A DNA stretch of 64,000 bases. It comes from Candidatus Rokuibacteriota bacterium. Its GTDB lineage: Bacteria > Methylomirabilota > Methylomirabilia > Rokubacteriales > CSP1-6. Both the position numbers and the translations under genes were made by a program. Location of the stretch: the NCBI GenBank assembly GCA_030647435.1, contig JAUSJX010000081.1, positions 2,913-66,912 of the forward strand, given 5' to 3'. Every line of letters starts with the position of its first letter. Within the stretch, counting starts at the first letter, position 1. Below the pieces are notes generated by a model, which saw nothing but the letters and a program-made list of their open reading frames with translations, had not been told where the DNA came from and ran no database searches. Shown here in pieces: positions 2,998 to 54,936 of this stretch.

Positions 2998-3153
2998 CTC
3001 CCCGCCGCGTATCGCTTTCGGGACATTGACACGCCGGAAGAGCGCGTCAGGATGGATGTGTCGGACGCGCTGATTGACTTTGGGGTCCACGGGCCCCTAC
3101 AATGATGAAACTGCTCGTCGAATTGGGCGTTTACGCGCCTCGGAGGAGAACCC

Positions 3154-36089: not shown

Positions 36090-39064
36090 CCCGCCCGCTC
36101 CTCTCGGCCGCGCTCCTGCTTCTCTCCGTTGCCCCGGCTGCCGCCGTCGAGCCCGCGTTCAAGCTGCCGCCGCCAGACCTGGCCGAGGTCCTGCCGCTGG
36201 TCTCGCCGGCGCTGGACAAGCCGGCGCTTCCGGGCTCGCTCGCGGCGTATCCACCCTCGCCCCAACCCGTGCCGCCGCTGCCGCGGGCCCGCGTGGAGAC
36301 CGACCTCGCGGTCCAGCCCGTGGCGGCCGCGCCGCCGCCGCGCTTCCTCGCGTGCAACCCGCTCGGCACCGTGCTCGGCGTCGTCTCCGAGCTCGTCGAA
36401 TGCGGCCGCGCGCGCTTCCAGCGCGGCGAGTTCGAAGACGCGCGCGAAGCGCTCGACGGCGCCGCCAAGCGCGCGACCGAGGCGCCCCTGCTTCGAGAGG
36501 CGCGCTACTGGCTGGGCGAGACTTTGATCCGGCTCGGCCAGCCCGACCAGGCGGCGCAGGCGATGCTCCTCGTGGTCCAGGGCGACCCGCGCTCGGACGT
36601 GGGGTTTCACGCCGCGCTCAAGTATGGCTGGCTGTCGCTGATGGCGGGCGATCCGGCGCGGGGGCTCGCGACGCTGGACGCGCTCGTCAAGAGCGGTCCG
36701 CCTCCGGACCTCGTCCCCTGGGCGCAGCACGGCCGCGCCGTGGCGCTGTACGGTCTCGGGCGCTACGCCGAAGCGCGCGAGGTCTGGACCCGCCTCCTCG
36801 GCCGGACCCTGCCCGCGCCGGTGGCAGGAGAGGCGCCCTTCTGGCTCGGCGACACGCTGGGGCGGCTCGGCGAGTACAAGGAGGCCGTCGCGCGGCTCAA
36901 GACCTTTACCGGCGGCGGCCCGCGCCTCCAGATCGACACGGCGCTCCTGCGCCTCGCCTGGTGGAGCCGCGCGGCAGGTGAGCCGCTCGCGGCCGTGCAG
37001 ACCTACCGCGGGGTGATGTCGGCGTATCCGAAGATGCCCGAGATCCTCTGGGCGAGGGCCGGGCTCGCGCTGGCCCTCCTCGACCTCGACGACTATGCAG
37101 CCGCCCTCGCCGAAGCGCGCACGCTCGACGCCGCCGACAAGGCGGGCGCGCTCGGCCTGCCTGTACTCCTGGCAGTGGATCGTTGGGCGACTTCGAGCCG
37201 CCGCGCCGACGACGCGCGGGCGCTCGAGCAGGAGCTCCTCGGACGCACCCTCGAGCCCGCCACGCGCGCCTACGTCCTCCTGCTGGCCGGCGAGGTCGAG
37301 CGCGACGCCGGCCAGATGTCGGAGGCCCGCGGCCGCTTCGAGCTCGTCCTGGCGCGTCCCGGGGCGCCGGCGCTCGGCTGGTACGCGGGGCTGCGCCTGG
37401 CGCAGACGGATCTCGAGAGCCGCGAGATCGCCCAGGCGCGGACGCGCATCGACGCGCTCCTCAACGAGCCGCTGACGGCCGAGCTCCGCGGCGCGGCCCT
37501 CGCGCTCGGCGGCGAGGCCGCCTACGCCGGTCGCGCCTGGGACGAGGCCGCGGCGCGCTACAGCCGGTTTCTCGCCGAGTTCCCGACCTCGCCGCAGGCG
37601 CCCTCGGTCCTGCTGGCGCTAGGCTGGGCGGAGTTCCGCCGCGGGCGTCTCGAGGCGGCGCGCGACACCTGGACGCGCTTCGCCACGATTAACCGCGCCG
37701 ATCCGCGGGCGCCCGCCGCGCTCCTTCTGGCGGCGGAGCTCGCGGCGCGCTCGGGCGACACCGCGGGCGCCCGCGCGCTGCTCGACGGGCTCGTCACGCG
37801 CTACCCGGAAGGCGAGTACGCGGACATTGCGCGGCTCAACCGGTCGATCCTCGCCATCCGCGCCGGCCGGGCCCCGACTGTCCTCGCCGATCTCACGGAG
37901 CTGATCCGCCGCGCGCCGCTGTCTCCCTACGTCGGGCGGATGAGGCTCGCGCGCGGCGTGGTCCTCGTGACGACCGGCAAGGCCGCGGAGGCCGCGCGCG
38001 AGTTCAAGAGCGCGCAGGGGCAGGGCGAGGGCGCGTCGGCGAACCTGGGGCTCGGGCGCGTCGCTTTCGATCTCGGGCAGTGGGACGAGGCCGAGCGGGA
38101 ATTCGTCGAGGCGCGCGACACGGGGGCGGGCGCCGTCGCGGCTGCGGCCGAGTACGGCATGGCCGCCGTGTTGTGGAACCAGGGCAAGAGCGACGACTTC
38201 AAGCGCTTCGCCCAGGCGCTCCTCGCGCGGCCGGCCGATCCGGCGATCACGCCCTACGTGCTCGCGGCCGTGGCGGCGCTGGCGGCCGACGAGGGGCGGT
38301 GGAAGGACGCGCGCACGCTCGCGATGCGCGCGGTCAACGAGTTCCCGACGAGCGATGCCGCGCCGACGGCGCTGTCGCTCGTAGGCACGGCGGCCGCGCG
38401 CGCGGGGGAGTGGCCGGTGGCGAGCGAGAGCTTCCAGCTCCTGACCGGCCGCTACCCCGGCTACAAGACCGGACGCGAGGCGCGGCACGGCTACGCCGAG
38501 GCGGGCTATAGAACTGGCGCCCACGCGGAGGCGAGCGCGAGGCTCCAGGAGTTCATCGACGCATCGCCGAGGGACCCCGAGCTGCCGCGCGCGCTCGTAC
38601 TGCTGGGCCGTACCCGCGAGGCGGCCGGCGACGGGGCTGGGGCGCTCGACGTCTACACGCGCGTGGAGCGCGAGTTCCATGCCTTCCAGGGCGCGGCGCT
38701 TCTCGGCAACGCCAGGGTGCTCCTGCTCGCCGGAAACTGGGACGAGGCGCGGCCGCTCCTCGAGCGCGCGGTGGAGGCGGGGGATGGGGGGGTGGCTGCC
38801 GAGGCGGCGTACCGCCTCGGTGAAGGGCTCCGGGGCGCGGGCCGTCACCAGCAGGCCGTCGACTCGTACATGATGGCGGCCTACGTCGCGCCCGACACGC
38901 CGCTCGCGCGCCGCGCGCTCCTCGGCGCCGGGCAGTCGTTCACCGCGCTCAAGCAGCCCGACTCGGCGATCATCGTGTACAAGAAGCTGCTGGCGGGGAA
39001 GGGCGTCGAGCCGGACGTGGCCGACGCCGCGAAGAAGGGGCTGAAAGCTCTCGGGGTCAACTAA
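36086..39064 (+). CDS. Large secreted tetratricopeptide-repeat protein (992 aa)
   Basis: ATG at 36086 overlaps the upstream TGA. Signal peptide MTRPLLSAALLLLSVAPAAA, then extensive TPR-like repeats. The 1149-aa track ORF is over-extended. Confidence 0.65.
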   Translation: MTRPLLSAALLLLSVAPAAAVEPAFKLPPPDLAEVLPLVSPALDKPALPGSLAAYPPSPQPVPPLPRARVETDLAVQPVAAAPPPRFLACNPLGTVLGVVSELVECGRARFQRGEFEDAREALDGAAKRATEAPLLREARYWLGETLIRLGQPDQAAQAMLLVVQGDPRSDVGFHAALKYGWLSLMAGDPARGLATLDALVKSGPPPDLVPWAQHGRAVALYGLGRYAEAREVWTRLLGRTLPAPVAGEAPFWLGDTLGRLGEYKEAVARLKTFTGGGPRLQIDTALLRLAWWSRAAGEPLAAVQTYRGVMSAYPKMPEILWARAGLALALLDLDDYAAALAEARTLDAADKAGALGLPVLLAVDRWATSSRRADDARALEQELLGRTLEPATRAYVLLLAGEVERDAGQMSEARGRFELVLARPGAPALGWYAGLRLAQTDLESREIAQARTRIDALLNEPLTAELRGAALALGGEAAYAGRAWDEAAARYSRFLAEFPTSPQAPSVLLALGWAEFRRGRLEAARDTWTRFATINRADPRAPAALLLAAELAARSGDTAGARALLDGLVTRYPEGEYADIARLNRSILAIRAGRAPTVLADLTELIRRAPLSPYVGRMRLARGVVLVTTGKAAEAAREFKSAQGQGEGASANLGLGRVAFDLGQWDEAEREFVEARDTGAGAVAAAAEYGMAAVLWNQGKSDDFKRFAQALLARPADPAITPYVLAAVAALAADEGRWKDARTLAMRAVNEFPTSDAAPTALSLVGTAAARAGEWPVASESFQLLTGRYPGYKTGREARHGYAEAGYRTGAHAEASARLQEFIDASPRDPELPRALVLLGRTREAAGDGAGALDVYTRVEREFHAFQGAALLGNARVLLLAGNWDEARPLLERAVEAGDGGVAAEAAYRLGEGLRGAGRHQQAVDSYMMAAYVAPDTPLARRALLGAGQSFTALKQPDSAIIVYKKLLAGKGVEPDVADAAKKGLKALGVN

Positions 39065-39591
39065 TCGAGGGCGGCCACGACGTCGGACATCGGTGCGTGG
39101 TCACCCGCAAAGCGGTCCCGCCACTCGTAGCGCACGCGATCCGCCGGCCCCAGCACGAACACGCCGCCCTGCTGCACCGGATCCCCCCGCCGCGCGCCCT
39201 GCCTGAAGCCCTTCGCGAACGCCCGCAGACCCTTCACGAAGCTCCCGGGATGGAAGGTCCTGCCCCAGCCATAGGCGAGGCCGGCCGCGCGGAAGGCCTC
39301 CAGCGACGGGTCCGCGTAGAGCGGGCCCGCGTAGCCCGTGACTTCACGGAAACCCTTCAGGTACTCGGGCTTTCCCGGCCCGACGACGACGAGCGCGGCG
39401 CCCCGCCGGACTATCGAGGGCTCGGCGGCGGCCAGGTCAGCGACCTGCTGACGACAGAAGATTCAGCCGAAGTGGCGGACGAAGGCGAGGACGGCCTGCT
39501 GGTCGGCCCAGGAGCCGCCGAGCGTGACGGCGCGACCCTCGGCGTCGAGGACCGTGAGGCGCGCGAGCCGCGATGCCACAGTGTCGGACAT
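39061..39591 (-). CDS. Candidate selenoprotein: AhpC/TSA-like (Prx-like, PF13911-type) thiol-disulfide oxidoreductase with in-frame UGA (Sec43) in a U-x-x-C motif
   Basis: Minus-strand ORF from ATG 39591: MSDTVASRLARLTVLDAEGRAVTLGGSWADQQAVLAFVRHFG-[TGA 39465..39463]-IFCRQQVADLAAAEPSIVRRGAALVVVGPGKPEYLKGFREVTGYAGPLYADPSLEAFRAAGLAYGWGRTF...RVRYEWRDRFAGDHAPMSDVVAALD, ending TAG at 39063..39061. The reading frame continues through the TGA for a further 133 codons. The TGA sits at the first position of the redox dyad, where family members typically have Cys. Missed by the ORF track. Confidence 0.65.
39430..39462 (-). promoter_or_regulatory. Bacterial SECIS-like hairpin immediately downstream of the in-frame UGA
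   Basis: mRNA reads UGA-AUCUUCUGUC-GUCAGC-AGGUC-GCUGAC: a perfect 6-bp stem with a 5-nt loop containing GGUC, beginning 10-11 nt after the UGA. This spacing and loop are reminiscent of the E. coli fdhF SECIS apical loop. Confidence 0.55.
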
Positions 39592-39649
39592 GGCGCGATT
39601 CTACCCGCTTCCGGGTACTGGGCCAATTTGCTTTGCCAGATTTACTCAG

Positions 39650-39812: not shown

Positions 39813-40529
39813 TTAGCGGGGGCCGATACCGAATAGTCGGAGCACGGCACGGCGCCTGAGCGCCAGGATCGAGTCCGTGGGCGAGATCTCCATGGGACAG
39901 ACGGCGGTGCAGTTGGCCTGGCCGTGACAGCGCGTCAACACGTCCTCGGCGAGCACCGCCTGGCTGCGATCGGCATGAGCCCCGTCGCGGCTGTCCCGCT
40001 GGAGCGTGAAGACGCGGTTCAGCGCCGCGGGCCCGGGGAAGCGCGGGTCGTGGCTGACCATGGTGCAGGCCGAGACGCACATGCCGCAGCCGATGCACTC
40101 GATCGCGGCGTCGATGGCGCGCCGCTCGCGCGTGCGCGAGCCGATCAGGGCGAACCCGTCGCCGTCCATCGCCCGGCGGCCGGGGACGAAGACCGCCTTC
40201 ATCTCCAGCATCTTGTTCTTGATCGGAGCCATGTCGACGACGAGGTCGCGGATCAAGGGGAACTGGTACAGCGGCCGGACGGTCACCGGCCCGCGGTCGA
40301 GATTCGAGAGCAAGGTCCGGCAGGCCCAGCGCTCGCGGCCGTTGACGACCATGGCGCAGGAGCCGCACATGCCCACGCGGCAGGCGTAGCGAAAGGCGAG
40401 CGTCGCATCGGAGTTTCGCTGGAGCTCGACCAGCGCGTCGAGGACCGTCATGCCCTGGAGGGCCTTGACCCAGTACTTCTGCAGGCGCTCGCGCGAGCCC
40501 GGGCTCCAGCGGAAGACCTTCAGTACCAT
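39813..40529 (-). CDS. sdhB: Succinate dehydrogenase/fumarate reductase iron-sulfur subunit
   Basis: 2Fe-2S motif CRVGMCGSC, then CIGCGMCVSAC and CHGQANCTAVCP cluster motifs. ATG at 40529. Confidence 0.8.
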   Translation of the reverse strand: MVLKVFRWSPGSRERLQKYWVKALQGMTVLDALVELQRNSDATLAFRYACRVGMCGSCAMVVNGRERWACRTLLSNLDRGPVTVRPLYQFPLIRDLVVDMAPIKNKMLEMKAVFVPGRRAMDGDGFALIGSRTRERRAIDAAIECIGCGMCVSACTMVSHDPRFPGPAALNRVFTLQRDSRDGAHADRSQAVLAEDVLTRCHGQANCTAVCPMEISPTDSILALRRRAVLRLFGIGPR

Positions 40530-40828
40530 CGCCACCTCCAGATGGCCGCGAAGGCCGCCACGCCGACCAGGAGCGCCAGCAGGAAGAGCAGCCGGTGCCA
40601 GCGCGCCGGCAGGCCGAAGTCGAGGAGGATGGCGCGCACGCCAAGCAGGCCGTGGAAGAGCACGAGGGCGAGGAGCGCCGCCTGGACGGGGCGCGCGAAG
40701 GGGTTCTTCAGGTGCGCCGCGATCACCGCCACGAGGCCGATGGCCGCGACGCGCTGGAGCAGCCACGCCCACATGCCCACCTTGGTGTCCCGCCACGCCT
40801 CGGCGGAGCCCATGCGGCGCGTGAGCAT
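40520..40828 (-). CDS. sdhC: Succinate dehydrogenase hydrophobic membrane-anchor subunit (single small anchor)
   Basis: ~100-aa protein with 3 TM helices and conserved His residues. Overlaps the sdhB start by 10 nt. Confidence 0.5.
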   Translation of the reverse strand: MLTRRMGSAEAWRDTKVGMWAWLLQRVAAIGLVAVIAAHLKNPFARPVQAALLALVLFHGLLGVRAILLDFGLPARWHRLLFLLALLVGVAAFAAIWRWRWY

Positions 40829-40863
40829 CTTCCGGTCACGGACCGGCTCGGCGCGCCGCGCGC

Positions 40864-42567
40864 TCAATCCCCGACCTCAACGCCTGTCGGCTGGCGCTCG
40901 CCGTCGGGCGCGAGGCGCGTGAGCCGCGTCGGCTCTTTCCAGACGCGCAAGCCCGCCGTGTCGCCGCCGGCGACGTGGATGTTGTACAGCTCGGCGCCGG
41001 TGTCCGGGTGGTCGCGGCGGAAGTGCGAGCCGCGGCTCTCCTCGCGCTCGAGCGCGCTGCGCGCGATGAGCCAGGCGGCTGCGACCTGGTTCTGGAGGTT
41101 GAGCCAGTCCTGCCACGCGAGGTTGTAGGTCGTCCCGCCCGGCACGGCCGCCCTTGGCGCGCGCTGGCCGATGTCCTCGATCTCGCGGAGCGCCGCCTTG
41201 AGGCCCGAGGCCTGACGCACGAGGCCCACCTGCTCCCACATGACGTCGCGCAGCCGCTGCTGGAGCGCGTAGAGACCCTCGCCGCCCTCACCGCGCCCGA
41301 GGGGTTCGACTATGCGGGCCGCCGGCGCCTCGACGTCCGGCGTGGACAACCGCGGCAGGGACCGGCCCACGACCCACTCCGCCATCACGTCGCCCGCGAT
41401 CCCGCCGAAGACGGTCGAGTCGGCCACGCCATTGCCCCCCAGCCGATTCGCGCCGTGGACGCCACCCGCATCCTCGCCGGCGGCGAAGAGTCCCTCAATG
41501 GCGGTCCGGCACGAGGCGTCGATGACCACCCCGCCCATCATGAAGTGCGCCGTCGGGCCCACTTCGACCGGCTCGCGGGCCAGATCCCGACCGAAGTCGC
41601 GGCAGCGCTTGACCATGCCCCGGAAGTTGGTCTCGACGAGCTTCGCGCCAAGGTGAGACACATCGATCCACACGCCGCCGTTCGGGCTGCCGAGGCCCTC
41701 CTGCACCTCGGTGAAGCAGGCGCGCGCGACGAGGTCGCGCGTGGAGCGCTCCATGCGCCCCGGATCGTAGCGCGACATGAAGCGCTCGCCCTTGCCGTTG
41801 AGGAGCCTGCCCCCCGCCCCCCGGAGCCCCTCTTCGAGCAGCGCGCCGGTCATGAGCGAGTTCGGCACGACGAGGCCCGTGGGATGGAACTGCACCATCT
41901 CCATGTCCTTAACGGGGGCGCCGGCGCGCAGCGCCAGCGCGATGCCGTCTGCGGCCTTGTCCGCCGAGCAGGCGATGACGCGGTACATCGTCGGCCCGCC
42001 GCCCATCGCGAGCAGCGTGGCGCGGCTGCGCACCGCGGTGAAGCTCCCGCGGCGGATGTCGAGCACGAGCGCCCCGCCGACGCGGCCGGCGCCGTCGCTG
42101 AGCAGCTCGACCGCCCGGTGTTCCTCCAGCGCGCGAATGGAAGGGCGAATCCACACCTGCTCGGTCAGCCGGTTCATGATCTCGATGCCGGTCAGATCTC
42201 CCTTGTGGATGGTCCGGTCGTGCGTCTGGCCGGCGAAGGGCTTCTGGTGGATGCGGCCGTCGGGGTGGCGGTCGAAGAAGCAGCCGTAGCGGCTCTCGAG
42301 CTCCAGCACGCGCCCGGGCGCCTCGGTGACGAGCGTCCAGACGAGCTCCTGGTCGTTGATCCAGCCGCCGCCCGCAAGGGTATCGAGGAGGTGCGCGTCG
42401 AGAGAGTCGGGGGAGGCGAGTACGGCGTTGTAGCCGCCCTGGACCATCCGCGTGCAGCCCGCGCGGCCGAGCAACCCCTTGACGACGACGGTCACCGACA
42501 GGTGCGGCGAGCGGTCCGCGGCGTGCAGGGCGGCGCAGAGCCCGGCGCCGCCGGCGCCCAGGATCAA
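40864..42567 (-). CDS. sdhA: Succinate dehydrogenase/fumarate reductase flavoprotein subunit
   Basis: FAD loop ILGAGGAGLCAAL and catalytic motifs HPTGL, HFMMGGV and RLGGNGVADS. TTG start at 42567. The upstream in-frame sequence (ETDLLILG) has no canonical start codon. Confidence 0.85.
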   Translation of the reverse strand: MILGAGGAGLCAALHAADRSPHLSVTVVVKGLLGRAGCTRMVQGGYNAVLASPDSLDAHLLDTLAGGGWINDQELVWTLVTEAPGRVLELESRYGCFFDRHPDGRIHQKPFAGQTHDRTIHKGDLTGIEIMNRLTEQVWIRPSIRALEEHRAVELLSDGAGRVGGALVLDIRRGSFTAVRSRATLLAMGGGPTMYRVIACSADKAADGIALALRAGAPVKDMEMVQFHPTGLVVPNSLMTGALLEEGLRGAGGRLLNGKGERFMSRYDPGRMERSTRDLVARACFTEVQEGLGSPNGGVWIDVSHLGAKLVETNFRGMVKRCRDFGRDLAREPVEVGPTAHFMMGGVVIDASCRTAIEGLFAAGEDAGGVHGANRLGGNGVADSTVFGGIAGDVMAEWVVGRSLPRLSTPDVEAPAARIVEPLGRGEGGEGLYALQQRLRDVMWEQVGLVRQASGLKAALREIEDIGQRAPRAAVPGGTTYNLAWQDWLNLQNQVAAAWLIARSALEREESRGSHFRRDHPDTGAELYNIHVAGGDTAGLRVWKEPTRLTRLAPDGERQPTGVEVGD

Positions 42568-43658: not shown

Positions 43659-44147
43659 TCACGCGGCGCACCCCGCGACGACCACGCGGACGCTCCGCTT
43701 GACCATGAGGAGCGCGCCGTCCTGCATCTCCGCCACGGCGCGCACGTCTCCGGTGTCGGCCAGCCGGAGGTTGGCGGCCACGTACGCCTGGCCGCACGCC
43801 GGCGTGAGGCTGAACTTCGCGTTGAGCGGCCGCGGGTTCTTGTCGGACATGACGTAGATGGTCTTGACGTAGCTCTGCGGCGTCATCGGCGACTTGACCT
43901 CGACCGACATGGCCACGTTGCCGCCGTCTTCCGCGATGAGCGGCAACTCGAGCGTGATGACCTGGGATCCGTCCTTGATCGGGCGGCTCCCGAACAGCCG
44001 CTGCATGGTTTTCTCGACGGGCTCCTCGGGGGCAAGGTTGGCGAGGAAGCCTTGAGCGCGCGCCTTGGCGTGAGGCCAAGCGGCGGCAAGCGCCGCCGCG
44101 GCGGCCCCCATGAACACTTCTCTCCTGGTCACCCCCTGCCGAGCCAT
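43659..44147 (-). CDS. soxY: Sulfur carrier protein SoxY (Tat-exported)
   Basis: Tat motif TRREVF, a SoxY beta-sandwich, and a C-terminal swinging-arm Cys in the variant motif VVVAGCAA-COOH (canonical GGCGG). Confidence 0.7.
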   Translation of the reverse strand: MARQGVTRREVFMGAAAAALAAAWPHAKARAQGFLANLAPEEPVEKTMQRLFGSRPIKDGSQVITLELPLIAEDGGNVAMSVEVKSPMTPQSYVKTIYVMSDKNPRPLNAKFSLTPACGQAYVAANLRLADTGDVRAVAEMQDGALLMVKRSVRVVVAGCAA

Positions 44148-44203
44148 GGCTCCCCGCTTAACCATGGCTCCATGATGCCGCGCTTCACGACCAAGTCAAA
44201 GGC

Positions 44204-47032
44204 TCACGGCTCGAGGCGGTAGGTCGAGGCATCGGGCCTGAAGGCCCGCGGCAGCCAGAGGGGGCGCCTGAGCCCGCCGGGTCCCGGCGCCGGCCGCGCC
44301 ATGGCGAGCCACTCGCGGTAGACCTGATGCGCCCGGTTGGTGTCCACGACGACGTCGCCGTAGCGGTCCTCGGGCCCCGGGCGGACGACGCGCACCTTCT
44401 GGTGCCAGCAGTGCTGGCCGCTGACGGGGTCCGGATGCACCGGGAACGTCAGGTTCTGGTGGACGCCCGGGTCCTCCCACCAGACGCGCGACGAGTCGGG
44501 GTCAGCGCTCTCGAACGGCCTCACGCCGTGGATGTGGCGGAGCCGCCACTGCCCTTCGCCCAGCCGCTGCATGTCCACGAGGGCCGTGGACCAGCGCTCG
44601 CCGCCCGCGTCCTCCTGGAGCCGCCAGCGGCCGAGGTGATGCGAGCAGGCGACGACGCCGGGCCGGATCGACTCGGTCACCCAGACCTTGTCCACGAAGT
44701 GGCCGATCTCCGTCTCCACCTTCAGGAGATCTCCCGTGCGGACGCCGAGCCGCGATGCGTCCCCGGGACTGAGCCACAGCGGGTTGGTATGCGAGATCTC
44801 GTAGAGCCACTTGGCATTGCCCGAGCGCGAGTGGATCAGGGTCGGGAGCCTGAAGGTCGGCAGGAGCAGCATCTCACCGCGGGCCGGGTCGATCTGGGAC
44901 CAGTGCACGTGGCCTTTCGCGTAGGTCGGCACCGCGTGCTCCGGCCACTTCCAGTCCTTGAGCGTCTTCGAATAGAACTCGAGCTTTCGCGAGGGCGTGG
45001 GGAACCCCGCGCGGAGCTGCCCGTCGACTTCGACACCCACGGCGCTCCCGCCCTTGACCGCCACGCGCGTGACGGGGTCCACCGCGGCCCCTAGGCACTC
45101 CGCGGGGGAGAGCGGGGTCTCGTGGGTGCGGTAGACGTGATCTTCGATGAGGAACGCGCCGTACTTGCGCATGTACTCGAGCGGAGTCAGGCCCTGCCGC
45201 GCCGCGGCCTCAGGCAGCCCGGGGACGCTGTGCTCGAAGATCCACCGGTAGAGCTCCTCGATCCTGAGCTTCTCGCCCGCGCGGTACGGGGACTCGAAGA
45301 ACTTCCTGATGCCGAGCGTCCCGTCGGGATCGATGCGCCACGACAGCTCGATCAAGAACTCGTCCTCCTCCCACACCTGCCCCAGCCCCACGGCCTCGTG
45401 GGCCTGCCAGGTCAGGTCGAACTTCTTGCCCTGCCGCTCGAGGGCCACGCGCAGGACGGGCTGGCGGAAGCCGATCCAGCGCGCCGCGTGGGTCTCCTGG
45501 CTCATGAGGTCGTGGCGCTCCGAGGCGTGCCCCATCGGCAGCACGTAGTCGGCGAACCACGCGGTCTCGCTCCAGATGGGCGTAAGACAGGCGTGCCGCT
45601 CGACCTTGGCCTCGTCCGTCAGCATCTCGATCCACGACATGCCGTCGGGGTTGGTCCAGACGGGGTTGTAGACACGCGTGAAGTACATGGCGAGCTTGCC
45701 GCGGCCTTCGCGGAGGAAGTGCGGCAGGAGGAAGCTCATCTCGAAGAAGGCCAGCGGGTACTCGCGCGGCATCAGGAGCTCGCTCCACACTTTCGCGGGG
45801 GGCGGCATCATCGGCGGCGCCGGCACGGCCTTGTTCCAGGCGCTGGGCGCGGTGCCGCCGGGAACCGCGACGGCGCCCATCAGCACCACCACCAGCTCCA
45901 GGGCGCGCGCGACTTCCCAGCCATGGAGGTTGCCCGCCGCGGCGTTCCGCCACACGTGACTCGAGAGCGCGCCGCCCGAGCGGCCGATCTCCCGCGCCAC
46001 TTCCTCGATGCGCGCCGCGGGGACACCGCTCTCGGCCTCTGCGAACTCCGGCGTGTACGTCGCGTAGATCTCGCCCAGCGCCCGCTCGAATTCTTCGAAG
46101 GCGACCGGCACGCCCGGCCGCTCGTGGCGCAGGTACTCCTCCCAGTTGACCCAGCGGCGGACGAACTCGCGGTCCCAGGTGCCGTCACGCAGCAGGACGT
46201 GGACGAAGGCCAGGAGCATCGCGGCCTCGGTCCCCGGCCAGGGCGACAGCCAGTAGTCCGCCATCGATGCGGTGTTGGACAGACGCGTGTCCACCACGCA
46301 AACCTTGGCGCCCGCCATCTTGCCCTCGATGATCCGCTGGGCGTGCGGATTGAAGTAGTGCCCCGCCTCGAGGTGGGAGGACAGGAGGAGGATGAAGCGC
46401 GCGCGGCTGTGATCGGGCGAGGGCCGGTCGAACCCGTGCCAGAAAGCGTAGCCGGCACGCGCCCCCGCCGAGCAGACGTTGGTGTGGCTGTTGTGCCCGT
46501 CGATGCCCCAGGCGTGGAAGACGCGCTGGAGGTAGACGAGCTCGTGCCCCGGGCGGCCCAGGTGATACATGATCTCCTTCTGCCTGCCCTCGACGAGCGC
46601 CTTGCGGATCCGACCGGCAATGTCGTCCAGCACCTCGTCCCAGCTGACGCGCTCCCACTTGCCTTCCCCGCGCTTCCCGGCGCGCTTCAGCGGGTAGAGG
46701 ATGCGCTCCGGATCCTGCACCTGGTTGAGCGTGGCCGGGCCCTTGGCGCAGTTGCGGCCGCGGCTGCCCGGGTGCTCGGGGTTGCCCTCGAACTTCTGGA
46801 TCTTGAGCGTCTGCTTGTCCACGTAGGCGAGGAGCCCGCAGCCCGCCTCGCAGTTGAAGCAGATGGTGGGGATGAGCGAGTAGCGCCGCGGCACGCGCTT
46901 CGGCCACGCTTTCGAGTCGTACTCCTCCCAGTCGTCCCACCGATCGACGGGCGGAAAGGGGCTGAGCCCGGGCGCCGGCGGGTCGAGGTCGCGGGCGTGC
47001 GGGTGAAGCGGGTCGGCTGACTTGTCGGTCAT
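44204..47032 (-). CDS. Molybdopterin (bis-MGD) oxidoreductase catalytic subunit, DMSO-reductase/complex iron-sulfur molybdoenzyme (CISM) family, cytoplasm-facing (SoeA-like)
   Basis: 942 aa with the N-terminal 4Fe-4S motif C-x2-C-x3-C...C (CFNCEAGCG...NCAKG) and a likely Mo-ligand region HTNVCSAGAR. No twin-arginine signal. AGGA Shine-Dalgarno before the ATG. No in-frame TGA. Confidence 0.75.
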   Translation of the reverse strand: MTDKSADPLHPHARDLDPPAPGLSPFPPVDRWDDWEEYDSKAWPKRVPRRYSLIPTICFNCEAGCGLLAYVDKQTLKIQKFEGNPEHPGSRGRNCAKGPATLNQVQDPERILYPLKRAGKRGEGKWERVSWDEVLDDIAGRIRKALVEGRQKEIMYHLGRPGHELVYLQRVFHAWGIDGHNSHTNVCSAGARAGYAFWHGFDRPSPDHSRARFILLLSSHLEAGHYFNPHAQRIIEGKMAGAKVCVVDTRLSNTASMADYWLSPWPGTEAAMLLAFVHVLLRDGTWDREFVRRWVNWEEYLRHERPGVPVAFEEFERALGEIYATYTPEFAEAESGVPAARIEEVAREIGRSGGALSSHVWRNAAAGNLHGWEVARALELVVVLMGAVAVPGGTAPSAWNKAVPAPPMMPPPAKVWSELLMPREYPLAFFEMSFLLPHFLREGRGKLAMYFTRVYNPVWTNPDGMSWIEMLTDEAKVERHACLTPIWSETAWFADYVLPMGHASERHDLMSQETHAARWIGFRQPVLRVALERQGKKFDLTWQAHEAVGLGQVWEEDEFLIELSWRIDPDGTLGIRKFFESPYRAGEKLRIEELYRWIFEHSVPGLPEAAARQGLTPLEYMRKYGAFLIEDHVYRTHETPLSPAECLGAAVDPVTRVAVKGGSAVGVEVDGQLRAGFPTPSRKLEFYSKTLKDWKWPEHAVPTYAKGHVHWSQIDPARGEMLLLPTFRLPTLIHSRSGNAKWLYEISHTNPLWLSPGDASRLGVRTGDLLKVETEIGHFVDKVWVTESIRPGVVACSHHLGRWRLQEDAGGERWSTALVDMQRLGEGQWRLRHIHGVRPFESADPDSSRVWWEDPGVHQNLTFPVHPDPVSGQHCWHQKVRVVRPGPEDRYGDVVVDTNRAHQVYREWLAMARPAPGPGGLRRPLWLPRAFRPDASTYRLEP

Positions 47033-47075
47033 TGAGTCCTCAAGAGAGTGGGGATCCTCACGAGAGTGGGCGTCC

Positions 47076-48623
47076 TCACGAAAGGGGCAGCGCTTGGCCG
47101 GCGCGCACCCAGATGTCTTCCCAGAGCCAGAGGCCGAAAAGACCGAGCACGGTCGCCGCGACGGCCGCCCATGGCTGCGGCGAGAGCACGAGCAGGACGA
47201 GCGGCACGGCGGTGCCGCCCACCACGATGCCCCACCAGAAGCGGACGCGGTACGGGCCCCGCGTGATCAGCCGCGCGGCGCGGGCGGCATCCTGGGTGGC
47301 ATGCGCCGTGAAGGCCTCGGCGAAGAGCACGACGCCGTTCAGGGCGAGCGAGAACCAGAGCGCCATGCGGAGCCCCTCGGCCACGCGCGGATCGTGGCTG
47401 ATGGCGAGCGCGGCGAGCAGGAGGCCCGCGCAGCCGGCCGTGACAGCGGCCACGAGGAGATGGGGCAGCACGAGCGGGCTCTGCCAGAAGTCGCGCCCCT
47501 CGGCCTGGCCGAAGAGGAAGGCGCTGTAGCCGGCCGACGCCGTGGCCACGAGCAGCACGGGCCAGCCCAGGGCGAAGAACGCCATGTAGCTCTGCGTCCA
47601 GCCCGCGACGAGCCAAGCGACGCCCAGGAGACCGTGCGCCGTCAAAATCCACCCGCCCCAGACCAGCCAGGAGCGCCAGTTCGGCTTCAAGAGGAGATAG
47701 AGGAATCGCTCCGGGCGCTTGAGGTCGAGGACGAGAAGCGCGGTCGTCAGCGCGAGGAAGACGAGGCTGATGAGCGGCGCCGCGAGACCCGCCACGGGTC
47801 CCGCAAAGGACAGCCCGGCGATCGCGGTGATCGCCGCGACGAGAAGCGCACCCGCCGCGACCGACTTGGTCCAGAGATACGTCGAGACCTTCCACCCCCA
47901 GGGCCGCTCCGGATGCGCCACGTCGTACACTGTCCGCGCCATGCCGAGCAGGTCCACGCCTTCACCGGCGACGGCTGCAGCCCGGCCGGCGACGTTGGGC
48001 CCGCCCGGCACCGGGATGCGGCTCGCCTCGGCGAACATATAGCGGTCACCGGCCTCCTGCATGGCCGGCCTCAGCGCGGCTTCGTCGGCGCCGATATAGA
48101 AGAGCTTGGGCTGCGTCCCCTGCTCCGGCTTGCGCACCGCCACCTGCTGCGTGGCGACCAGACGCGCGATCCCCGAGTTGGGGTCGTCCAGGTCGCCCGG
48201 GACGATGGCCTGCACCGGGCACACGATGACGCACGCCGGCTCGAGCCCGACCTCGACCCGGTGCGCGCAGTAGTGGCACTTGGCCGCCGTCTGCGTCTCC
48301 GGGTCGATGTAGAGCGCGTCGTACGGGCAGGCCTGCATGCACGACTTGCAGCCGATGCAGCGGTCACCGTCGAAGTCCACGATGCCGTCGGGGCGCCGGT
48401 AGAGCGCGACGGTCGGGCAGATCGTCACGCACGGGGCGTTGTCGCAGTGGTTGCACCGCATGACGGAGAAGTAGCGCCGCGTGTCGGGGAACGTGCCCTT
48501 CTCGATGTACTTGACCCAGGTGCGGTTGACGCCGAGGGGCACCTGGTTCTCTTCCTTGCACGCCACCGTGCAGGCGTGACACCCGATACATTTCCGCTGG
48601 TCGATCACGAAGCCGTAGCGCAA
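47076..48623 (-). CDS. Fused 4x[4Fe-4S] ferredoxin subunit and NrfD/PsrC-like membrane anchor (CISM B-C fusion)
   Basis: N-terminal ~200 aa has four Cys clusters (CIGCHACTVAC, CNHCDNAPC, CIGCKSCMQAC, CHYCAHR...CVIVCP). The C-terminal ~300 aa is polytopic and NrfD-like. Confidence 0.75.
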   Translation of the reverse strand: MRYGFVIDQRKCIGCHACTVACKEENQVPLGVNRTWVKYIEKGTFPDTRRYFSVMRCNHCDNAPCVTICPTVALYRRPDGIVDFDGDRCIGCKSCMQACPYDALYIDPETQTAAKCHYCAHRVEVGLEPACVIVCPVQAIVPGDLDDPNSGIARLVATQQVAVRKPEQGTQPKLFYIGADEAALRPAMQEAGDRYMFAEASRIPVPGGPNVAGRAAAVAGEGVDLLGMARTVYDVAHPERPWGWKVSTYLWTKSVAAGALLVAAITAIAGLSFAGPVAGLAAPLISLVFLALTTALLVLDLKRPERFLYLLLKPNWRSWLVWGGWILTAHGLLGVAWLVAGWTQSYMAFFALGWPVLLVATASAGYSAFLFGQAEGRDFWQSPLVLPHLLVAAVTAGCAGLLLAALAISHDPRVAEGLRMALWFSLALNGVVLFAEAFTAHATQDAARAARLITRGPYRVRFWWGIVVGGTAVPLVLLVLSPQPWAAVAATVLGLFGLWLWEDIWVRAGQALPLS

Positions 48624-48641
48624 GCGAGTCTCCCGTGAACC

Positions 48642-49424
48642 CTAGTGCAGAACGTCGATCCAGACGCGCAGGGCCGCCAGCGCGATGACGGCGCCGAGTA
48701 TTACACGCAGGACGCCCACGGGAGCGCGCCTGCTGAGATGCGCGCCGAGGCTCGCGCCCGGCAATGAGCCCGCCACGACGGCGACGGCCGCGATGAAAGG
48801 GACCTGGCCCGTCGCGAGCTTGCCCACGAACCCCAAGCACGCGCCGGCGCCGACCATCACGAGCGAGGTGCCGATGCTGAGCCGCACCGGGAGCCGCATG
48901 ACGCCCACGAGCGCGGGCATCAGGAGAAACGCCCCGCCGGCGCCGACCAAGCCCGAGAAGACGCCGACCACTCCCGGGATCGCGACGGCCTCGGCCCGGT
49001 TGAACAGCATGGTCTCCGCGCGCGCGCCCGGCGCGGCGACGATAGGCGGGATGAACATGAGCAGCAGCGCCGCTGTGGCCATCAGGGCGAAGACGAGGAG
49101 CAGCACGCGCCCCCCGACGTAGTGTGCTCCAACCGCTCCCGCCAGCGAGCCCGCGGCCATGGCCGACCCGCCCCAGAGGGCCAGGCGGCGGTGCACCATG
49201 GCGCCGCGGCCGTGGGTCCATGCGCCCATCACGGAGGCCGCCAGCACCTGCGCCATGGTCACGCCCGCCACCAGCTTGATGTCGAGGCTGCCCACGGCGA
49301 GGAGCGGCGGGACATAGAAGAGGAGCGGGATCATCACGATGGCCCCGCCCACGCCGACCAGTCCCGACGCGAACGCGCCCACGAAGCCCAGCGCGGCCAG
49401 CGTCAGGATGAAGACCGCGCTCAT
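48642..49424 (-). CDS. TauE/SafE-family sulfite exporter (DUF81)
   Basis: 8-TM protein with duplicated TauE halves containing G-rich motifs (GLVGVGGAIVMIPLL and GLVGAGGAFLLMPAL). Start chosen at M47 of the track ORF. Confidence 0.6.
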   Translation of the reverse strand: MSAVFILTLAALGFVGAFASGLVGVGGAIVMIPLLFYVPPLLAVGSLDIKLVAGVTMAQVLAASVMGAWTHGRGAMVHRRLALWGGSAMAAGSLAGAVGAHYVGGRVLLLVFALMATAALLLMFIPPIVAAPGARAETMLFNRAEAVAIPGVVGVFSGLVGAGGAFLLMPALVGVMRLPVRLSIGTSLVMVGAGACLGFVGKLATGQVPFIAAVAVVAGSLPGASLGAHLSRRAPVGVLRVILGAVIALAALRVWIDVLH

Positions 49425-49626
49425 GCGGAAGCGCCAGGGTCCGGTTGCGACATGGGCAGCATGATACCTCGACCGCCCCCCGCGCCGATGGCCCGCGTCG
49501 ATGACGGTCCCGCAGGCCCCGAGTGCGAAGCCTACAGGCAGCAGCCAGAGGGGTTCGGGCATGAGTCGCCGAAAGCTCGGCGGCCCATTCTGCCACGGCG
49601 TCCCCGGGCGGGCGCCGGATTCCGGG

Positions 49627-50235
49627 CTAGCGGAGGCTCGAGTAGTACGCGGCCAGATCGGCGAACTGGCCGTCCGGGATGATCTTCATCAGCGCCTTCT
49701 TGGCCGCGAGCAGCGGTTCGCCCGGGTCCCGCGTGTCCACCTTGAAGAGCACCATCTGCTGCGCGAGGTAGCCGGGCGGCTGTCCGGCGAGTCCCGGGAT
49801 CAGCCGCGCGGGATCACCCTTGCCGTCCGGCCCGTGGCAGATCACGCACTGGGCCGCAACCGTCTTGCCTCTCGCGGCGGCTTCGGCCGAAGAGCGAATG
49901 GGCGTGGGCACGCGCTTCTGCGCGGCGAAGTACGCCGCGATCTGGTTCAGCCCGAGGAACTGGATCTCCTTGGCGTAGGGCTCCATCTCGGGCGACGGGC
50001 GCTTGCCGGCGGCGTAGTTCTCGATCTGCCGCTTGAAGTAGGCCGGGTCGAGCCCGGAGATGATCGGCATCATGTTGGAGCCGCTGTTGCCGTTGGCACC
50101 GTGGCAGGCCGCGCACGTGATGACCTTCGCGAAGCCCGGGTCGTCGAGCGGGCCGGCGGCGCAGGCCGCGCCGGGCCCGGCCGCGAGTACGAAAACTGCC
50201 GCCGCGAGGGCGGCCGCGAAGCGTGAGGTCGTCAT
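49627..50235 (-). CDS. fccA: Diheme cytochrome c, flavocytochrome c sulfide dehydrogenase cytochrome subunit (FccA-like)
   Basis: Signal peptide and two CxxCH motifs (CAACH, CVICH). Confidence 0.7.
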   Translation of the reverse strand: MTTSRFAAALAAAVFVLAAGPGAACAAGPLDDPGFAKVITCAACHGANGNSGSNMMPIISGLDPAYFKRQIENYAAGKRPSPEMEPYAKEIQFLGLNQIAAYFAAQKRVPTPIRSSAEAAARGKTVAAQCVICHGPDGKGDPARLIPGLAGQPPGYLAQQMVLFKVDTRDPGEPLLAAKKALMKIIPDGQFADLAAYYSSLR

Positions 50236-50250
50236 GATCGCCGTCCCCCT

Positions 50251-51546
50251 CTACGACAGCATGTCGGCCCAGATGCTCTGCCGCCAGCCCTCTGCACGCT
50301 GGGCGACGGAGACGCTCTGGGCGGGCGTGAGCTTCTGCTCGATCTGGACCACCTTGCCGTTCTCGATCTTGTAGGAATTCACCACCGCGATGGCTTCGCG
50401 GTCGCTGACCCAGCTGTAGCAGGTGTTGCCTGGAGGCATGAGCGGCACGGCTTGCCCGTTGAGCAGGCTCACGATGCTGAGCGCCGCCGCCTTGCCCATG
50501 TTGTTGGCGACGTTTCCGGACTTCGGCACGGGCAGTCCGATGGTCGCGTCGCCGACCACGTGGATGTTCTTCTGCTTCACCGACTCGTACGTGACGTGGT
50601 CCACCTCGCACCAGCGCTTGTCGGCGCCGACGAGGTCCGCCTGGACGGCAATCGTGCCCGCGCGCTGGGGCGGGATCAGGTTGAGCACGTCGTACTTGAC
50701 GCGGTCGAACTCGGTGCGGACTTCGCGCGTCGAGGTATCGACGCCGATCACCTTCTGCGAGGCGCGGTAGTCGATGTTCGGGTACGCCTGCCACGCCGCG
50801 CGGAAGAGCGCGGTCTTCGACACGATGTTCTGGTTGGCGTCGAGCACGATCACCTTGCTCTTCGGCTTGTGCTGCTTGAGGTACCACGCGACCTGGCAGA
50901 TGCGCTCGTAGGGGCCCGGCGGGCAGCGGAAGGCGACGGGAGGCACCGTCAGGACGAAGACGCCGCCGTCCGGCATGGACTGGATCTGCGCCGCCAGCTG
51001 CACCGTCTGCGGCCCCGCCTTCCACGCGTGGAGCACCGTGTCCTTGGCGGCCGCGAGCCCCTCGATCTGCTCCCACTGGAAGTCGATGCCGGGCGAGACG
51101 ACGAGACGGTCGTAGGCGAGGTAGCCTTGGCCGATGCGGACCCTCTTGGTGTCGGGCTCGATGGCGGTCGCTGACTCGTGGATGATCTTGACGCCGCGGG
51201 CCCGGAGCCCCGCGTAGGAAAGCGTCAGGCTCTCGATGGTCCGCTGCCCGCTCAACACGAGATTGCTGAACGGGCAGGAGACGAACTCGCGGTTGGGCTC
51301 GAGCAGCACCACTTCGATCGACGGGTCGGCGATCCGGATGTATCTGGCCGCGGTGGACCCGCCCCAGCCGCCGCCGATCACCACCACCCTGCGACCGCTC
51401 TTTGGCGCGATGTCGCCCGTCATGGTACTGGCGCAGCCCGAGAGTCCAAGACCAGCGCCCAAGCCCAACCTGACACCGACACCCACACCCGAGGAGCGGA
51501 GGAAATCTCTGCGCGTCAGCCCGCTCATAGACCCCGCCTCCTTCAT
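50251..51546 (-). CDS. fccB: Flavocytochrome c sulfide dehydrogenase flavoprotein subunit (FccB/SoxF-like)
   Basis: Tat signal SGLTRRDFLRSSG, then the FAD motif VVVIGGGWGGSTAARY. FccB-like C-terminal domain. Confidence 0.8.
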   Translation of the reverse strand: MKEAGSMSGLTRRDFLRSSGVGVGVRLGLGAGLGLSGCASTMTGDIAPKSGRRVVVIGGGWGGSTAARYIRIADPSIEVVLLEPNREFVSCPFSNLVLSGQRTIESLTLSYAGLRARGVKIIHESATAIEPDTKRVRIGQGYLAYDRLVVSPGIDFQWEQIEGLAAAKDTVLHAWKAGPQTVQLAAQIQSMPDGGVFVLTVPPVAFRCPPGPYERICQVAWYLKQHKPKSKVIVLDANQNIVSKTALFRAAWQAYPNIDYRASQKVIGVDTSTREVRTEFDRVKYDVLNLIPPQRAGTIAVQADLVGADKRWCEVDHVTYESVKQKNIHVVGDATIGLPVPKSGNVANNMGKAAALSIVSLLNGQAVPLMPPGNTCYSWVSDREAIAVVNSYKIENGKVVQIEQKLTPAQSVSVAQRAEGWRQSIWADMLS

Positions 51547-51620
51547 TGATTGGCTCGTTTATCGACCGGAATACGGAGAAATGTACTAAGCCATTTGCAT
51601 CATGTCAACAGCGTTTTTGG

Positions 51621-52857: not shown

Positions 52858-54936
52858 CTAATGGGCCTTCTCTTTCTCTGCCTTCGCGGCGGCGACGACT
52901 TTCTCCGCGAGGTGGGCCGGGACTTCTTCGTAGTGCGAGAAGTCCATGGAGTAGCCGCCGCGCCCGCCGGTCATGGAGCGGAGCGAGGACTCGTACGTCA
53001 GCATTTCGGCCATGGGCGCCTGTGCGCGGACGGACACGACTTCGCCGTCGGGCTCCATGCCCACGATGCGCCCGCGGCGGCCGTTCAGGTCACCGATGAC
53101 GTCGCCCGCGTGGTCGGACGGCGCCGTCACCTCGACGTGCATGATGGGCTCGAGGAGGATCGGGTGCGCCTCCATGAAGCCCTTCTGCAGGCCCATCGAG
53201 GCCGCGATCTGGAAGGCCATGTCCGAGGAATCCACGTCGTGGTAGGAGCCGTCGTAGAGCGAGACCTTGAGGTCCACGATGGGGTAGCCGGCGAAGATGC
53301 CGCGCTTCAGGCAGTCGCGGACGCCTTTCTCCACCGACGGGATGAAGTTACGCGGCACGGACCCGCCGAAGATATCGTCCACGAACTCGAAGCCGCCGCC
53401 GCGCTGGAGCGGCTCGACCTTGAGCCACACGTCGCCGTACTGCCCGCGGCCACCCGTCTGCTTCTTGTACTTGCCCTGGACTTCGGCGCGCCCCTTGACG
53501 GTCTCCTTGTAAGGGATGCGCGGCGGCAGGAGGCTCACGTCCACGTTGTACTTGCGCTTCATCCGCTCGACGACCGTCTCGACGTGCAGCTGCCCCATGC
53601 CGGAGACGAGCAGCTGCTTCGTCTCGGGGTCGAAGTGGTGGTGGAGCGTCGGGTCCTCCTCCGTCATCCGGTGGAGCGCCGTCGAGATCTTGTCCTCGTC
53701 GCCGCGCGTCTTGGGCTGGATCGCGAAGGAGATGGAGGGCTCCGGGAAGGCGATGCCCGGCAGGACGACCGGGTGCGCCTCGTCGCAGAGCGTGTCGCCC
53801 GTCAGCGTGTCTTTCAGCTTCGCGACGACGCCGATCTCCCCGGGCCCCAGCGCCTCGACGGGCTTCTGCGTCTTGCCCATGAGCCACCCGATATGCCCGA
53901 TGCGCTCCTTGGCCCCGCGCGTGGAGTTGAGCACCTGGCTGTCGGCCTTGAAGGTGCCGGAGTACACGCGGAAGAGCGAGAGCTTGCCCACGTGCGGGTC
54001 CGCGATGGTCTTGAAGACAACGGCCGCGAGCGGAGCCTTGGGATCGGGCGCCAGCGTGACGGCCTGCTTGGTGCGCGGGTCGATGCCCTCGACCGGGCCG
54101 GCCTCGGCGGGCGACGGGAACTCCTTGACGATCAGGTCCATCAGCGGCTGGACGCCGATGCCCTTGGCGGCGGAGGCGGCCATGACGGGCACGAGGCTCC
54201 CCTGCCCGATGGCCTTGCCGAGGGCCTTGACCATCTCCTCCTCGCCAATGCTGCCCTCTTCGAGATACTTGGCGAGAAGGTCGTCGTCGGTCTCGGCCAC
54301 GGCCTCCATGAGCTTCTCGCGCCACGCCTTAGCGTCGTCCATCGCCTCGCCGGGGATCTCGGCTTCCTTCGGCTTGCCGTCGGCCGTAAGGAGCGCCTTC
54401 ATCGCGACCAGGTCCACCACGCCCTTGAGGCCCGCCTCGGACCCGATCGGCAGCTGGAGCGGGCAGAGCCGGCCCTTCAAGCGCTTCTGGAGTGACTCGA
54501 GGGTGCGGAAGAAATCGGCGCGCTCGCGGTCGAGGCGGTTGATGACAACAGCGCGCGGCAGGGTGTACTCGTTGGCGTACTTCCAGACCTTCTCCGTCTG
54601 CACCTGCACGCCGGCGACCGCGTCCACCACGATGACCGCCGCGCCCGCCACGCGCAGCCCCCCGCGCGCGTCGGCGACGAAGTCGCCGTACCCGGGCGTG
54701 TCGATCAGGTTGAGGCGGTGGCCCTTCCAGTCGCAGTAGGCGACCGAGGTGCCCAGCGAGATCTTGCGCTTGATCTCGTCGGGGTCGAAGTCGGTGGTGG
54801 TGGTGCCGTCGTCCACCTTGCCGAGCCGGTTGATGGCCCCGGCCGCGAACAGGATGGCTTCCACCAGGGATGTCTTGCCGACCCCGCCGTGCCCCGCGAA
54901 GCCCACGTTGCGGATCTTGGAGATGTCCGTCGCCAT
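52858..54936 (-). CDS. Elongation factor G paralog (EF-G2-like translational GTPase)
   Basis: G1 AGHGGVGKTS, G3 DTPGYGDF and G4 NRLD motifs, then EF-G domains II-V. ATG at 54936 with a GGAGG Shine-Dalgarno. No adjacent ribosomal-protein genes. Confidence 0.85.
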   Translation of the reverse strand: MATDISKIRNVGFAGHGGVGKTSLVEAILFAAGAINRLGKVDDGTTTTDFDPDEIKRKISLGTSVAYCDWKGHRLNLIDTPGYGDFVADARGGLRVAGAAVIVVDAVAGVQVQTEKVWKYANEYTLPRAVVINRLDRERADFFRTLESLQKRLKGRLCPLQLPIGSEAGLKGVVDLVAMKALLTADGKPKEAEIPGEAMDDAKAWREKLMEAVAETDDDLLAKYLEEGSIGEEEMVKALGKAIGQGSLVPVMAASAAKGIGVQPLMDLIVKEFPSPAEAGPVEGIDPRTKQAVTLAPDPKAPLAAVVFKTIADPHVGKLSLFRVYSGTFKADSQVLNSTRGAKERIGHIGWLMGKTQKPVEALGPGEIGVVAKLKDTLTGDTLCDEAHPVVLPGIAFPEPSISFAIQPKTRGDEDKISTALHRMTEEDPTLHHHFDPETKQLLVSGMGQLHVETVVERMKRKYNVDVSLLPPRIPYKETVKGRAEVQGKYKKQTGGRGQYGDVWLKVEPLQRGGGFEFVDDIFGGSVPRNFIPSVEKGVRDCLKRGIFAGYPIVDLKVSLYDGSYHDVDSSDMAFQIAASMGLQKGFMEAHPILLEPIMHVEVTAPSDHAGDVIGDLNGRRGRIVGMEPDGEVVSVRAQAPMAEMLTYESSLRSMTGGRGGYSMDFSHYEEVPAHLAEKVVAAAKAEKEKAH

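Follow-up and report, generated by a model that had tools for sequence, protein, structure and literature searches.

Described relatives of the gene

Selenoproteins of the peroxiredoxin-like kind, in which selenocysteine (Sec, U) opens a U-x-x-C motif, have been catalogued since 2005-2008 (PMC1088965, PMC2398784), and a family with the motif UxxS is given under cd02970 (PRX-like2) in a 2026 review (PMC13188914). The catalogued proteins share a thioredoxin fold, Sec as the first residue of U-x-x-C or U-x-x-S, a selenocysteine insertion sequence (SECIS) in the coding region just past the UGA, and abundant Cys homologs; their function is only predicted. In this study, a stretch of 64,000 nucleotides from a Candidatus Rokuibacteriota bacterium (contig JAUSJX010000081.1 of assembly GCA_030647435.1, positions 2,913 to 66,912 of the forward strand), hereafter called the window, was analysed with regard to a gene on its minus strand that contains an in-frame TGA. 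This is very probably a functional Sec-encoding gene for a 176-residue peroxiredoxin-like redox protein, in which the catalytic Cys is replaced by a UGA-encoded Sec. The protein is a member of an already known kind of bacterial selenoprotein, whose genes are routinely split by gene callers, and its novelty is modest. New is a clade of such proteins that lies just under the cutoff of an NCBIfam subfamily and is deposited in the form of truncated records.

The gene product shows differences from its described relatives. Its best Pfam family is PF13911, whereas pfam00578 underlies the catalogued UxxC entry. The cd02970 entry has the motif UxxS, whereas the window protein has UxxC and its relatives in the Desulfobacterota mostly have UxxA. 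Eukaryotic SelL, after which the NCBIfam family NF040769 was named, is likewise peroxiredoxin-like and carries its redox motif at the equivalent place, but it possesses a pair of Sec residues at a distance of two residues (PMC3316567) and a eukaryotic SECIS in the 3' untranslated region; the window gene has one Sec in a U-x-x-C motif and a bacterial hairpin in the coding region. Prostamide/prostaglandin F synthase (PRXL2B) provides the closest structure, with its CxxC aligned to the UxxC, but it is a Cys enzyme with low identity, and nothing points to a prostaglandin substrate for the bacterial protein. In the papers on deep-Sep and BSepDB, neither this redoxin family nor the Methylomirabilota are mentioned.

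Reading frame and family membership

On retranslation, the layout given in an initial annotation, which had been made from the sequence alone, held in every coordinate. On the minus strand (39591-39061), 42 codons are followed by a TGA (39465-39463), 133 further codons and a TAG (39063-39061). The joined translation reads MSDTVASRLARLTVLDAEGRAVTLGGSWADQQAVLAFVRHFG up to the TGA, with ...AFVRHFG as the end of this upstream part, and continues as IFCRQQ...AALD up to the TAG. In the list of open reading frames (ORFs), this frame is represented only by an ORF of 42 amino acids (aa; 39463..39591) and by one of 58 aa with a GTG start (39061..39237); past the TGA, no in-frame start is thus available until 76 codons downstream. 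When both strands were scanned for in-frame TGA codons between coding-like flanks (at least 25 stop-free codons on each side, with a G+C content of at least 0.82 at third and below 0.62 at second codon positions), exactly one site was obtained in the 64 kb, and this was the TGA at 39465-39463.

A reassigned code, in which UGA is read as Trp or Gly, was considered and ruled out. Of the 21 genes of the window with Pfam support, 11 are terminated by TGA, and the genetic code is therefore standard here.

For profile and sequence searches, Cys was substituted at the TGA position. The proposal that the product resembles AhpC/TSA_2 proteins was borne out by the match to PF13911 (AhpC-TSA_2; 72.5 bits, cutoff 27; profile positions 2-113 of 114). 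PF00578 (AhpC-TSA) matched residues 11-106 with 33.4 bits, and this match runs across the TGA. NF040769 ('SelL-related redox protein') was the only match among the NCBIfam families and is aligned end to end (positions 5-172 of 173; 168 aligned). Among solved structures, prostamide/prostaglandin F synthase (PDB 9us9; E = 8.7e-15; residues 17-173) is the nearest; its RRFG-C-VV-C-R is aligned to VRHFG-U-IF-C-R, so that the TGA corresponds to the first Cys of the CxxC. In the companion entry 9usa, both of these Cys residues are replaced by Ser.

The window protein differs from typical peroxiredoxins (Prx/AhpC), in which the peroxidatic Cys or Sec stands in a T/S-x-x-C context (motif TxxU in PMC13188914, Table 1) and not in a dyad of the CxxC type: its motif is HFG-U-IF-C, PF00578 is matched with only 33.4 bits, and its best family is PF13911. 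It is also distinct from selenoprotein L proper (U-x-x-U): only a single TGA is present, and the second motif position is TGT (Cys). This second position, residue 46, is Cys throughout the Methylomirabilota clade and Ala in most homologs from the Desulfobacterota.

Conservation of the TGA codon

The homolog search covered 5.8 billion proteins. Full-length homologs (176-200 aa, about 60% identity) read VRHLGCIFCRQQ, i.e. VRHLG-C-IFC-RQQ, and in 14 of them the TGA is aligned to the first Cys of the CxxC. Together with the first CxxC Cys of 9us9, this confirms the expectation that homologs carry Cys at the TGA position. The first 42 residues align with the N-termini of the full-length homologs; the upstream segment had been taken for the N-terminus of the family, and both this alignment and the AhpC-TSA match crossing the TGA agree with that assignment.

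The closest homologs in the databases (79-91% identity) are all fragments of 108-140 aa, which begin past the TGA position. Six of them were examined at the DNA level, and all six loci contain the in-frame TGA; in four of the six, a separately called ORF of 45 aa lies directly 5' of the fragment, and a convergent TPR gene follows downstream. A scan with one genome per species yielded 37 loci, 28 with TGA at the same codon and eight with TGC or TGT. With the window and two extra close relatives included, the number of distinct sequences with TGA at this codon is 33. These TGA forms come from MAGs (metagenome-assembled genomes) of Methylomirabilota/Rokubacteria, from a few bins labelled otherwise and from Desulfobacterota (37-45% identity), among them Desulfatibacillum alkenivorans DSM 16219 (42%). 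The public records of the clade are truncated entries named 'peroxiredoxin-like family protein' or 'hypothetical protein'; P0098 and P0115, for example, are Sec forms of this clade that are stored at NCBI as truncated 'peroxiredoxin-like family protein', while the Cys homolog P0010 (59% identity) is named 'SelL-related redox protein' by NCBI.

The ratio of non-synonymous to synonymous substitution rates (dN/dS), determined against relatives whose dS reaches about 1, was 0.26-0.56 for 39 codons before the TGA and 0.10-0.36 for 130 codons after it. These low values on both sides indicate that both halves are translated and constrained.

The TGA might also be the result of a nonsense mutation or a base-call error, by which TGC or TGT was turned into TGA in a dead gene or in a faulty assembly. 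The source is a MAG, and Cys forms with TGC or TGT exist in related MAGs, so that a single base change interconverts Sec and Cys forms. The TGA is, however, kept in the 33 distinct sequences, which stem from independent assemblies and at least two phyla; purifying selection acts on both halves, and the hairpin described below co-varies with the state of this codon. Such an origin is therefore extremely improbable and is effectively refuted by conservation.

Exchange of Sec and Cys among the homologs

In a neighbour-joining tree, which gives an indication only, the Cys forms are nested within clades of Sec forms in at least three groups. Within the Methylomirabilota-type clade (L009-L044 and the window), all Sec forms read H-F-G-U and all Cys forms H-L-G-C. 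A switch between Phe and Leu two codons before the Sec/Cys codon is thus paired with each switch between Sec and Cys; this could be due to a structural fit to selenium or to the UGA's codon context.

In the Desulfobacterota homologs L029, L031, L033, L034 and L036-L042, U-x-x-A is found instead of U-x-x-C, and the motif is therefore without a resolving Cys. U-x-x-A is not mentioned among the peroxiredoxin-like families in the reviews, which give UxxC/UxxU and UxxS, and this branch may represent an uncatalogued motif variant.

The SECIS-like hairpin

In the SECIS of E. coli fdhF, the apical region is GCAGGUC, and its G23 and U24 are contacted by SelB. The window has a loop in the context GC-AGGUC-GC, in which the GGU presumably lies one nucleotide closer to the UGA than in fdhF. 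In comparison to the fdhF element, the hairpin of the window has neither a bulged U nor a long lower stem, and only 5-6 bp are conserved.

The perfect 6-bp hairpin GUCAGC-AGGUC-GCUGAC, which the initial annotation had placed 10 nt past the UGA, was found there (39452-39436), with a spacer at 39462-39453, a distance of 16 nt from the UGA to the loop and an energy of -8.0 kcal/mol in isolation. According to the bacterial SECIS model, the loop comprises 3-9 nt with a G within its first two positions, the stem 4-16 bp and the distance from UGA to loop 16-37 nt, at a minimum free energy of -7.5 kcal/mol or lower (PMC13188914, Fig. 2 legend). With a loop of 5 nt, a G at loop position 2 and the values given above, the hairpin of the window falls within this model, as had been suggested for its geometry.

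For the analysis of covariation, 32 distinct Sec-form sequences in a gap-free alignment were used. RNAalifold predicted a single consensus helix, and this was the 6-bp hairpin. In the Sec forms, 93% of the stem cells are paired, and four of the six pairs are changed on both sides in a compensatory manner; none of 500 column shuffles reached the observed pairing values, and in slid registers the paired fraction dropped to 18-78%. The stem occurs as GUCAGC/GCUGAC (window and nearest relative, L047), GCCAGC/GCUGGC, GGCAGC/GCUGCC, GGCGGC/GCCGCC and ACCAGC/GCUGGU, plus one variant with a G-U pair; in L030 and L035, the stem is shifted by one nucleotide, as judged by eye. The GG[U/C] feature of the loop and the spacing of the SECIS model are retained in the homologs. 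In the Cys forms, the stem is imperfect in eight of eight cases; pairing is down to 75% of the cells, and seven of the eight have lost the A-U pair.

The codons of the stem encode Arg-Gln-Gln-Val-Ala-(Asp/Gly/Ala). In the Arg codon, the third base, which is synonymous, varies together with its pairing partner, base two of the Asp/Gly/Ala codon: CGU occurs with GAC, CGC with GGN and CGG or AGG with GCC. The nearest relatives follow the same rule (L047, CGT and GAC; L048, CGC and GGC). The third base of the Ala codon is the pairing partner of the A in CAG. This codon is GCT in 28 of the 32 Sec forms and in one of the eight Cys forms, while GCC or GCG is used in the other seven at the same encoded amino acids. 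A T at this third base was counted in 29/32 Sec vs 1/8 Cys forms (Fisher's exact test, p = 4.7e-5, no correction for phylogeny). In the window, GCT accounts for 4.3% of the Ala codons and CGT for 3.7% of the Arg codons; its stem is therefore made of two rare codons. Judged from these alignments, the hairpin is under selection at the RNA level and is maintained only where the UGA is present.

Weighing of the selenoprotein interpretation

Alignment, conservation of the TGA and covariation of the hairpin all support the selenoprotein interpretation put forward in the initial annotation. Several observations weigh against it. The first concerns the family: the score for NF040769 is 113.2 bits and thus below the cutoff of 120 bits, so that the NCBI pipeline would leave the window protein without that name. 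Relatives fall on both sides of this cutoff (L001, 111.9; L013, 112.4; P0010, 120.6; the TGA relative L030, 138.2), and the window protein, by its profile score, narrowly misses the subfamily and stands at its edge.

Further points of this kind concern the hairpin. Its 16-nt distance from the UGA to the loop is the shortest that the published model allows, and in the window with its 70% G+C, a hairpin within the same thresholds comes after 143 of 1328 TGA triplets (11%). Given this chance rate, the hairpin alone is weak evidence, and only the comparative data carry weight. The 71-nt fold is no stabler than shuffled sequences (z = +0.53), and its minimum free energy structure omits the 6-bp stem in favour of other pairings; single-sequence folding of the 71 nt was dropped as uninformative. 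No Rfam SECIS family was detected when the whole window was searched at the gathering threshold and the region 39350-39520 at E <= 10, where only chance matches appeared. Neither the Fisher test nor the shuffle control was corrected for phylogeny.

Finally, no selA, selB, selD or tRNA-Sec is present in the 64-kb window. SelA, SelB and SelD were absent from a Pfam scan of about 40 window ORFs and from a composition-based look at the gaps, and ARAGORN found no tRNA of any kind in the window; in 39 related loci, it detected no tRNA-Sec. The sole elongation-factor-type GTPase of the window, an EF-G-like protein of 692 aa (52861-54936, minus strand) with an atypical P-loop region (GFAGHGGVGKT), contains the EFG_III, IV and C domains and is therefore not SelB; by its domain content, it is probably an EF-G paralog.

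Both the absence of Sec machinery from the window and the properties of the hairpin, which is short, has no Rfam match and has a chance equivalent at 11% of TGAs, would also fit a genuine or leaky stop. The gene would then yield a 42-residue peptide, perhaps with some near-cognate read-through by Trp or Cys, and the hairpin would be a generic read-through or pausing element or incidental. However, the TGA is located exactly at the catalytic Cys of the CxxC, the classic site of Sec/Cys exchange, and the 133 codons downstream are strongly conserved despite the lack of a start for 76 codons. In addition, the loop GG[U/C] and the distance prescribed by the bacterial SECIS model are kept, and the same arrangement occurs across the Desulfobacterota including D. 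alkenivorans. The Thermodesulfobacteriota (the former Deltaproteobacteria) belong to the bacteria that are richest in selenoproteins (PMC13188914). A stop codon in this sense is very unlikely.

Slightly less likely still is a relic, i.e. a former selenoprotein gene in an organism that has recently lost Sec decoding and no longer expresses the full-length protein. The view of this genome is limited to the 64-kb window, and the at least three conversions from Sec to Cys in the neighbour-joining tree indicate that selenium use is labile in the clade. Against this, the copy in the window retains a perfect 6-bp stem of two rare codons, the nearest relative (91% identity) has the same stem, and dN/dS towards this relative is about 0.3 in both halves, so that no decay is visible.

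For a functional selenoprotein gene, which is very probable, the literature backs Sec decoding at the phylum level only. The alanyl-tRNA synthetase (AlaRS) of the window shares 100% identity with one of a MAG listed at NCBI as 'Candidatus Rokubacteria bacterium'. For one MAG of the Methylomirabilota, 63 selenoprotein genes have been predicted (PMC13188914), and [NiFeSe] hydrogenases of the Sec type are reported from Methylomirabilota (PMC13582414).

Proposed mechanism

The locus can be regarded as one gene for a thiol/selenol oxidoreductase of the thioredoxin-fold PRX-like 2 type (AhpC-TSA_2, SelL-related) with the presumed active-site motif U43-I-F-C46, whose UGA (39465-39463) is probably recoded during translation. 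According to the general scheme of Sec insertion (summarised in PMC13188914), the hairpin 10 nt downstream would be bound by SelB together with GTP and Sec-tRNA(Sec), and SelB would deliver Sec at the UGA; the hairpin would set the GGU-containing loop 16 nt after this codon. By analogy to the chemistry of thioredoxin folds, the selenolate of Sec43 would be the attacking nucleophile on a disulfide or peroxide. Resolution by Cys46 would then lead to a selenenylsulfide, and this would be reduced by a thiol reductant of the cell.

Upstream region and neighbouring genes

The features of the gene are listed in Table 1. No Shine-Dalgarno sequence is evident before the ATG, neither in the sequence itself nor in the comparison of upstream regions. 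Only 6 nt separate the end of the -10 hexamer TAGAAT from the ATG; as far as can be read from the sequence, this suggests that the mRNA is leaderless or nearly so. A box of the type TACAAT, TAGAAT or TAAGAT 6-7 nt before the start, again without a Shine-Dalgarno sequence, is found throughout the Methylomirabilota clade (L001-L028, L043, L044, L047, L048); the homologs from Desulfobacterota have the canonical AGGAGG instead.

Table 1. Positions of the features of the redoxin gene in the window.
Feature	Positions	Strand	Evidence
Peroxiredoxin-like (AhpC-TSA_2 / PRX-like2) selenoprotein coding sequence, 176 residues (probable)	39061..39591	-	Translation, Pfam, homolog alignment, dN/dS
ATG start codon	39589..39591	-	First start past an in-frame TAG four codons upstream
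In-frame TGA, probable Sec (U43), opening residue of the U-I-F-C motif	39463..39465	-	DNA of homologs and alignment with PDB 9us9
TGT, Cys46, presumed resolving residue of U-x-x-C	39454..39456	-	Translation, homolog comparison
SECIS-like hairpin, 6-bp stem	39436..39452	-	5' arm GUCAGC (39452-39447), loop AGGUC (39446-39442), 3' arm GCUGAC (39441-39436)
Sigma-70-like promoter match (TTGGCC, 17-nt spacer, TAGAAT)	39598..39626	-	Consensus scan, 1 site vs 0.0 expected

The TAG of the redoxin gene overlaps at 39061-39064 with the stop of a convergent gene of 1149 codons on the plus strand (end 39064), which encodes a TPR protein. In the relatives, the two genes are at least 12 nt apart, and the convergent TPR neighbour is still conserved. 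Directly upstream on the same strand (39813-42567), an operon similar to those for succinate dehydrogenase/fumarate reductase is located, which comprises a flavoprotein, a small membrane subunit and an Fe-S subunit. The first available start of the flavoprotein ORF, a TTG at 42567, lies inside the FAD-binding motif. This neighbour is not conserved; the relatives have an aminotransferase and/or an aldehyde:ferredoxin oxidoreductase on the opposite strand.

Two further loci of the window may be mentioned. A frame of 724 codons on the plus strand (3109-5280) represents a RecA gene with an intein (RecA 26-229, LAGLIDADG_2 335-471, RecA_C 648-703). On the minus strand (43659-51558), six genes form an apparent cluster for sulfur oxidation and respiration, which encodes SoxY, a molybdopterin oxidoreductase of about 1000 aa, a fused 4Fe-4S/NrfD protein and TauE, as well as a dihaem-type cytochrome c and the flavoprotein of a flavocytochrome-c sulfide dehydrogenase.

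Significance of the redoxin gene

A wider picture, which falls a little short of being probable and is put forward tentatively, may be drawn for soil and groundwater Methylomirabilota/Rokubacteria. They might possess a PRXL2/SelL-related clade in which Sec is the ancestral state and which is systematically truncated by annotation pipelines. This clade would combine a minimal SECIS of 5-6 bp at the shortest spacing (16 nt) with a possibly leaderless mRNA, and would have undergone at least three reversions to Cys, each accompanied by decay of the hairpin and a change from Phe to Leu two residues before the active site.

The compact element of 17 nt is a candidate SelB-binding site from a phylum that has received little study. 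In the closely related sister forms with Sec and Cys, the same residues (RQQVAG) are encoded over the hairpin with different synonymous codons, and their comparison gives an unusually clean and direct view of the bases that are constrained by the SECIS. The finding is mainly a correction of the annotation: this MAG, like many related assemblies, either lacks the gene or has it split into an ORF of 45 aa and a 'peroxiredoxin-like' fragment of 108-141 aa without the active site. The selenoproteomes and the redox capacity of Rokubacteria and Methylomirabilota are consequently undercounted.

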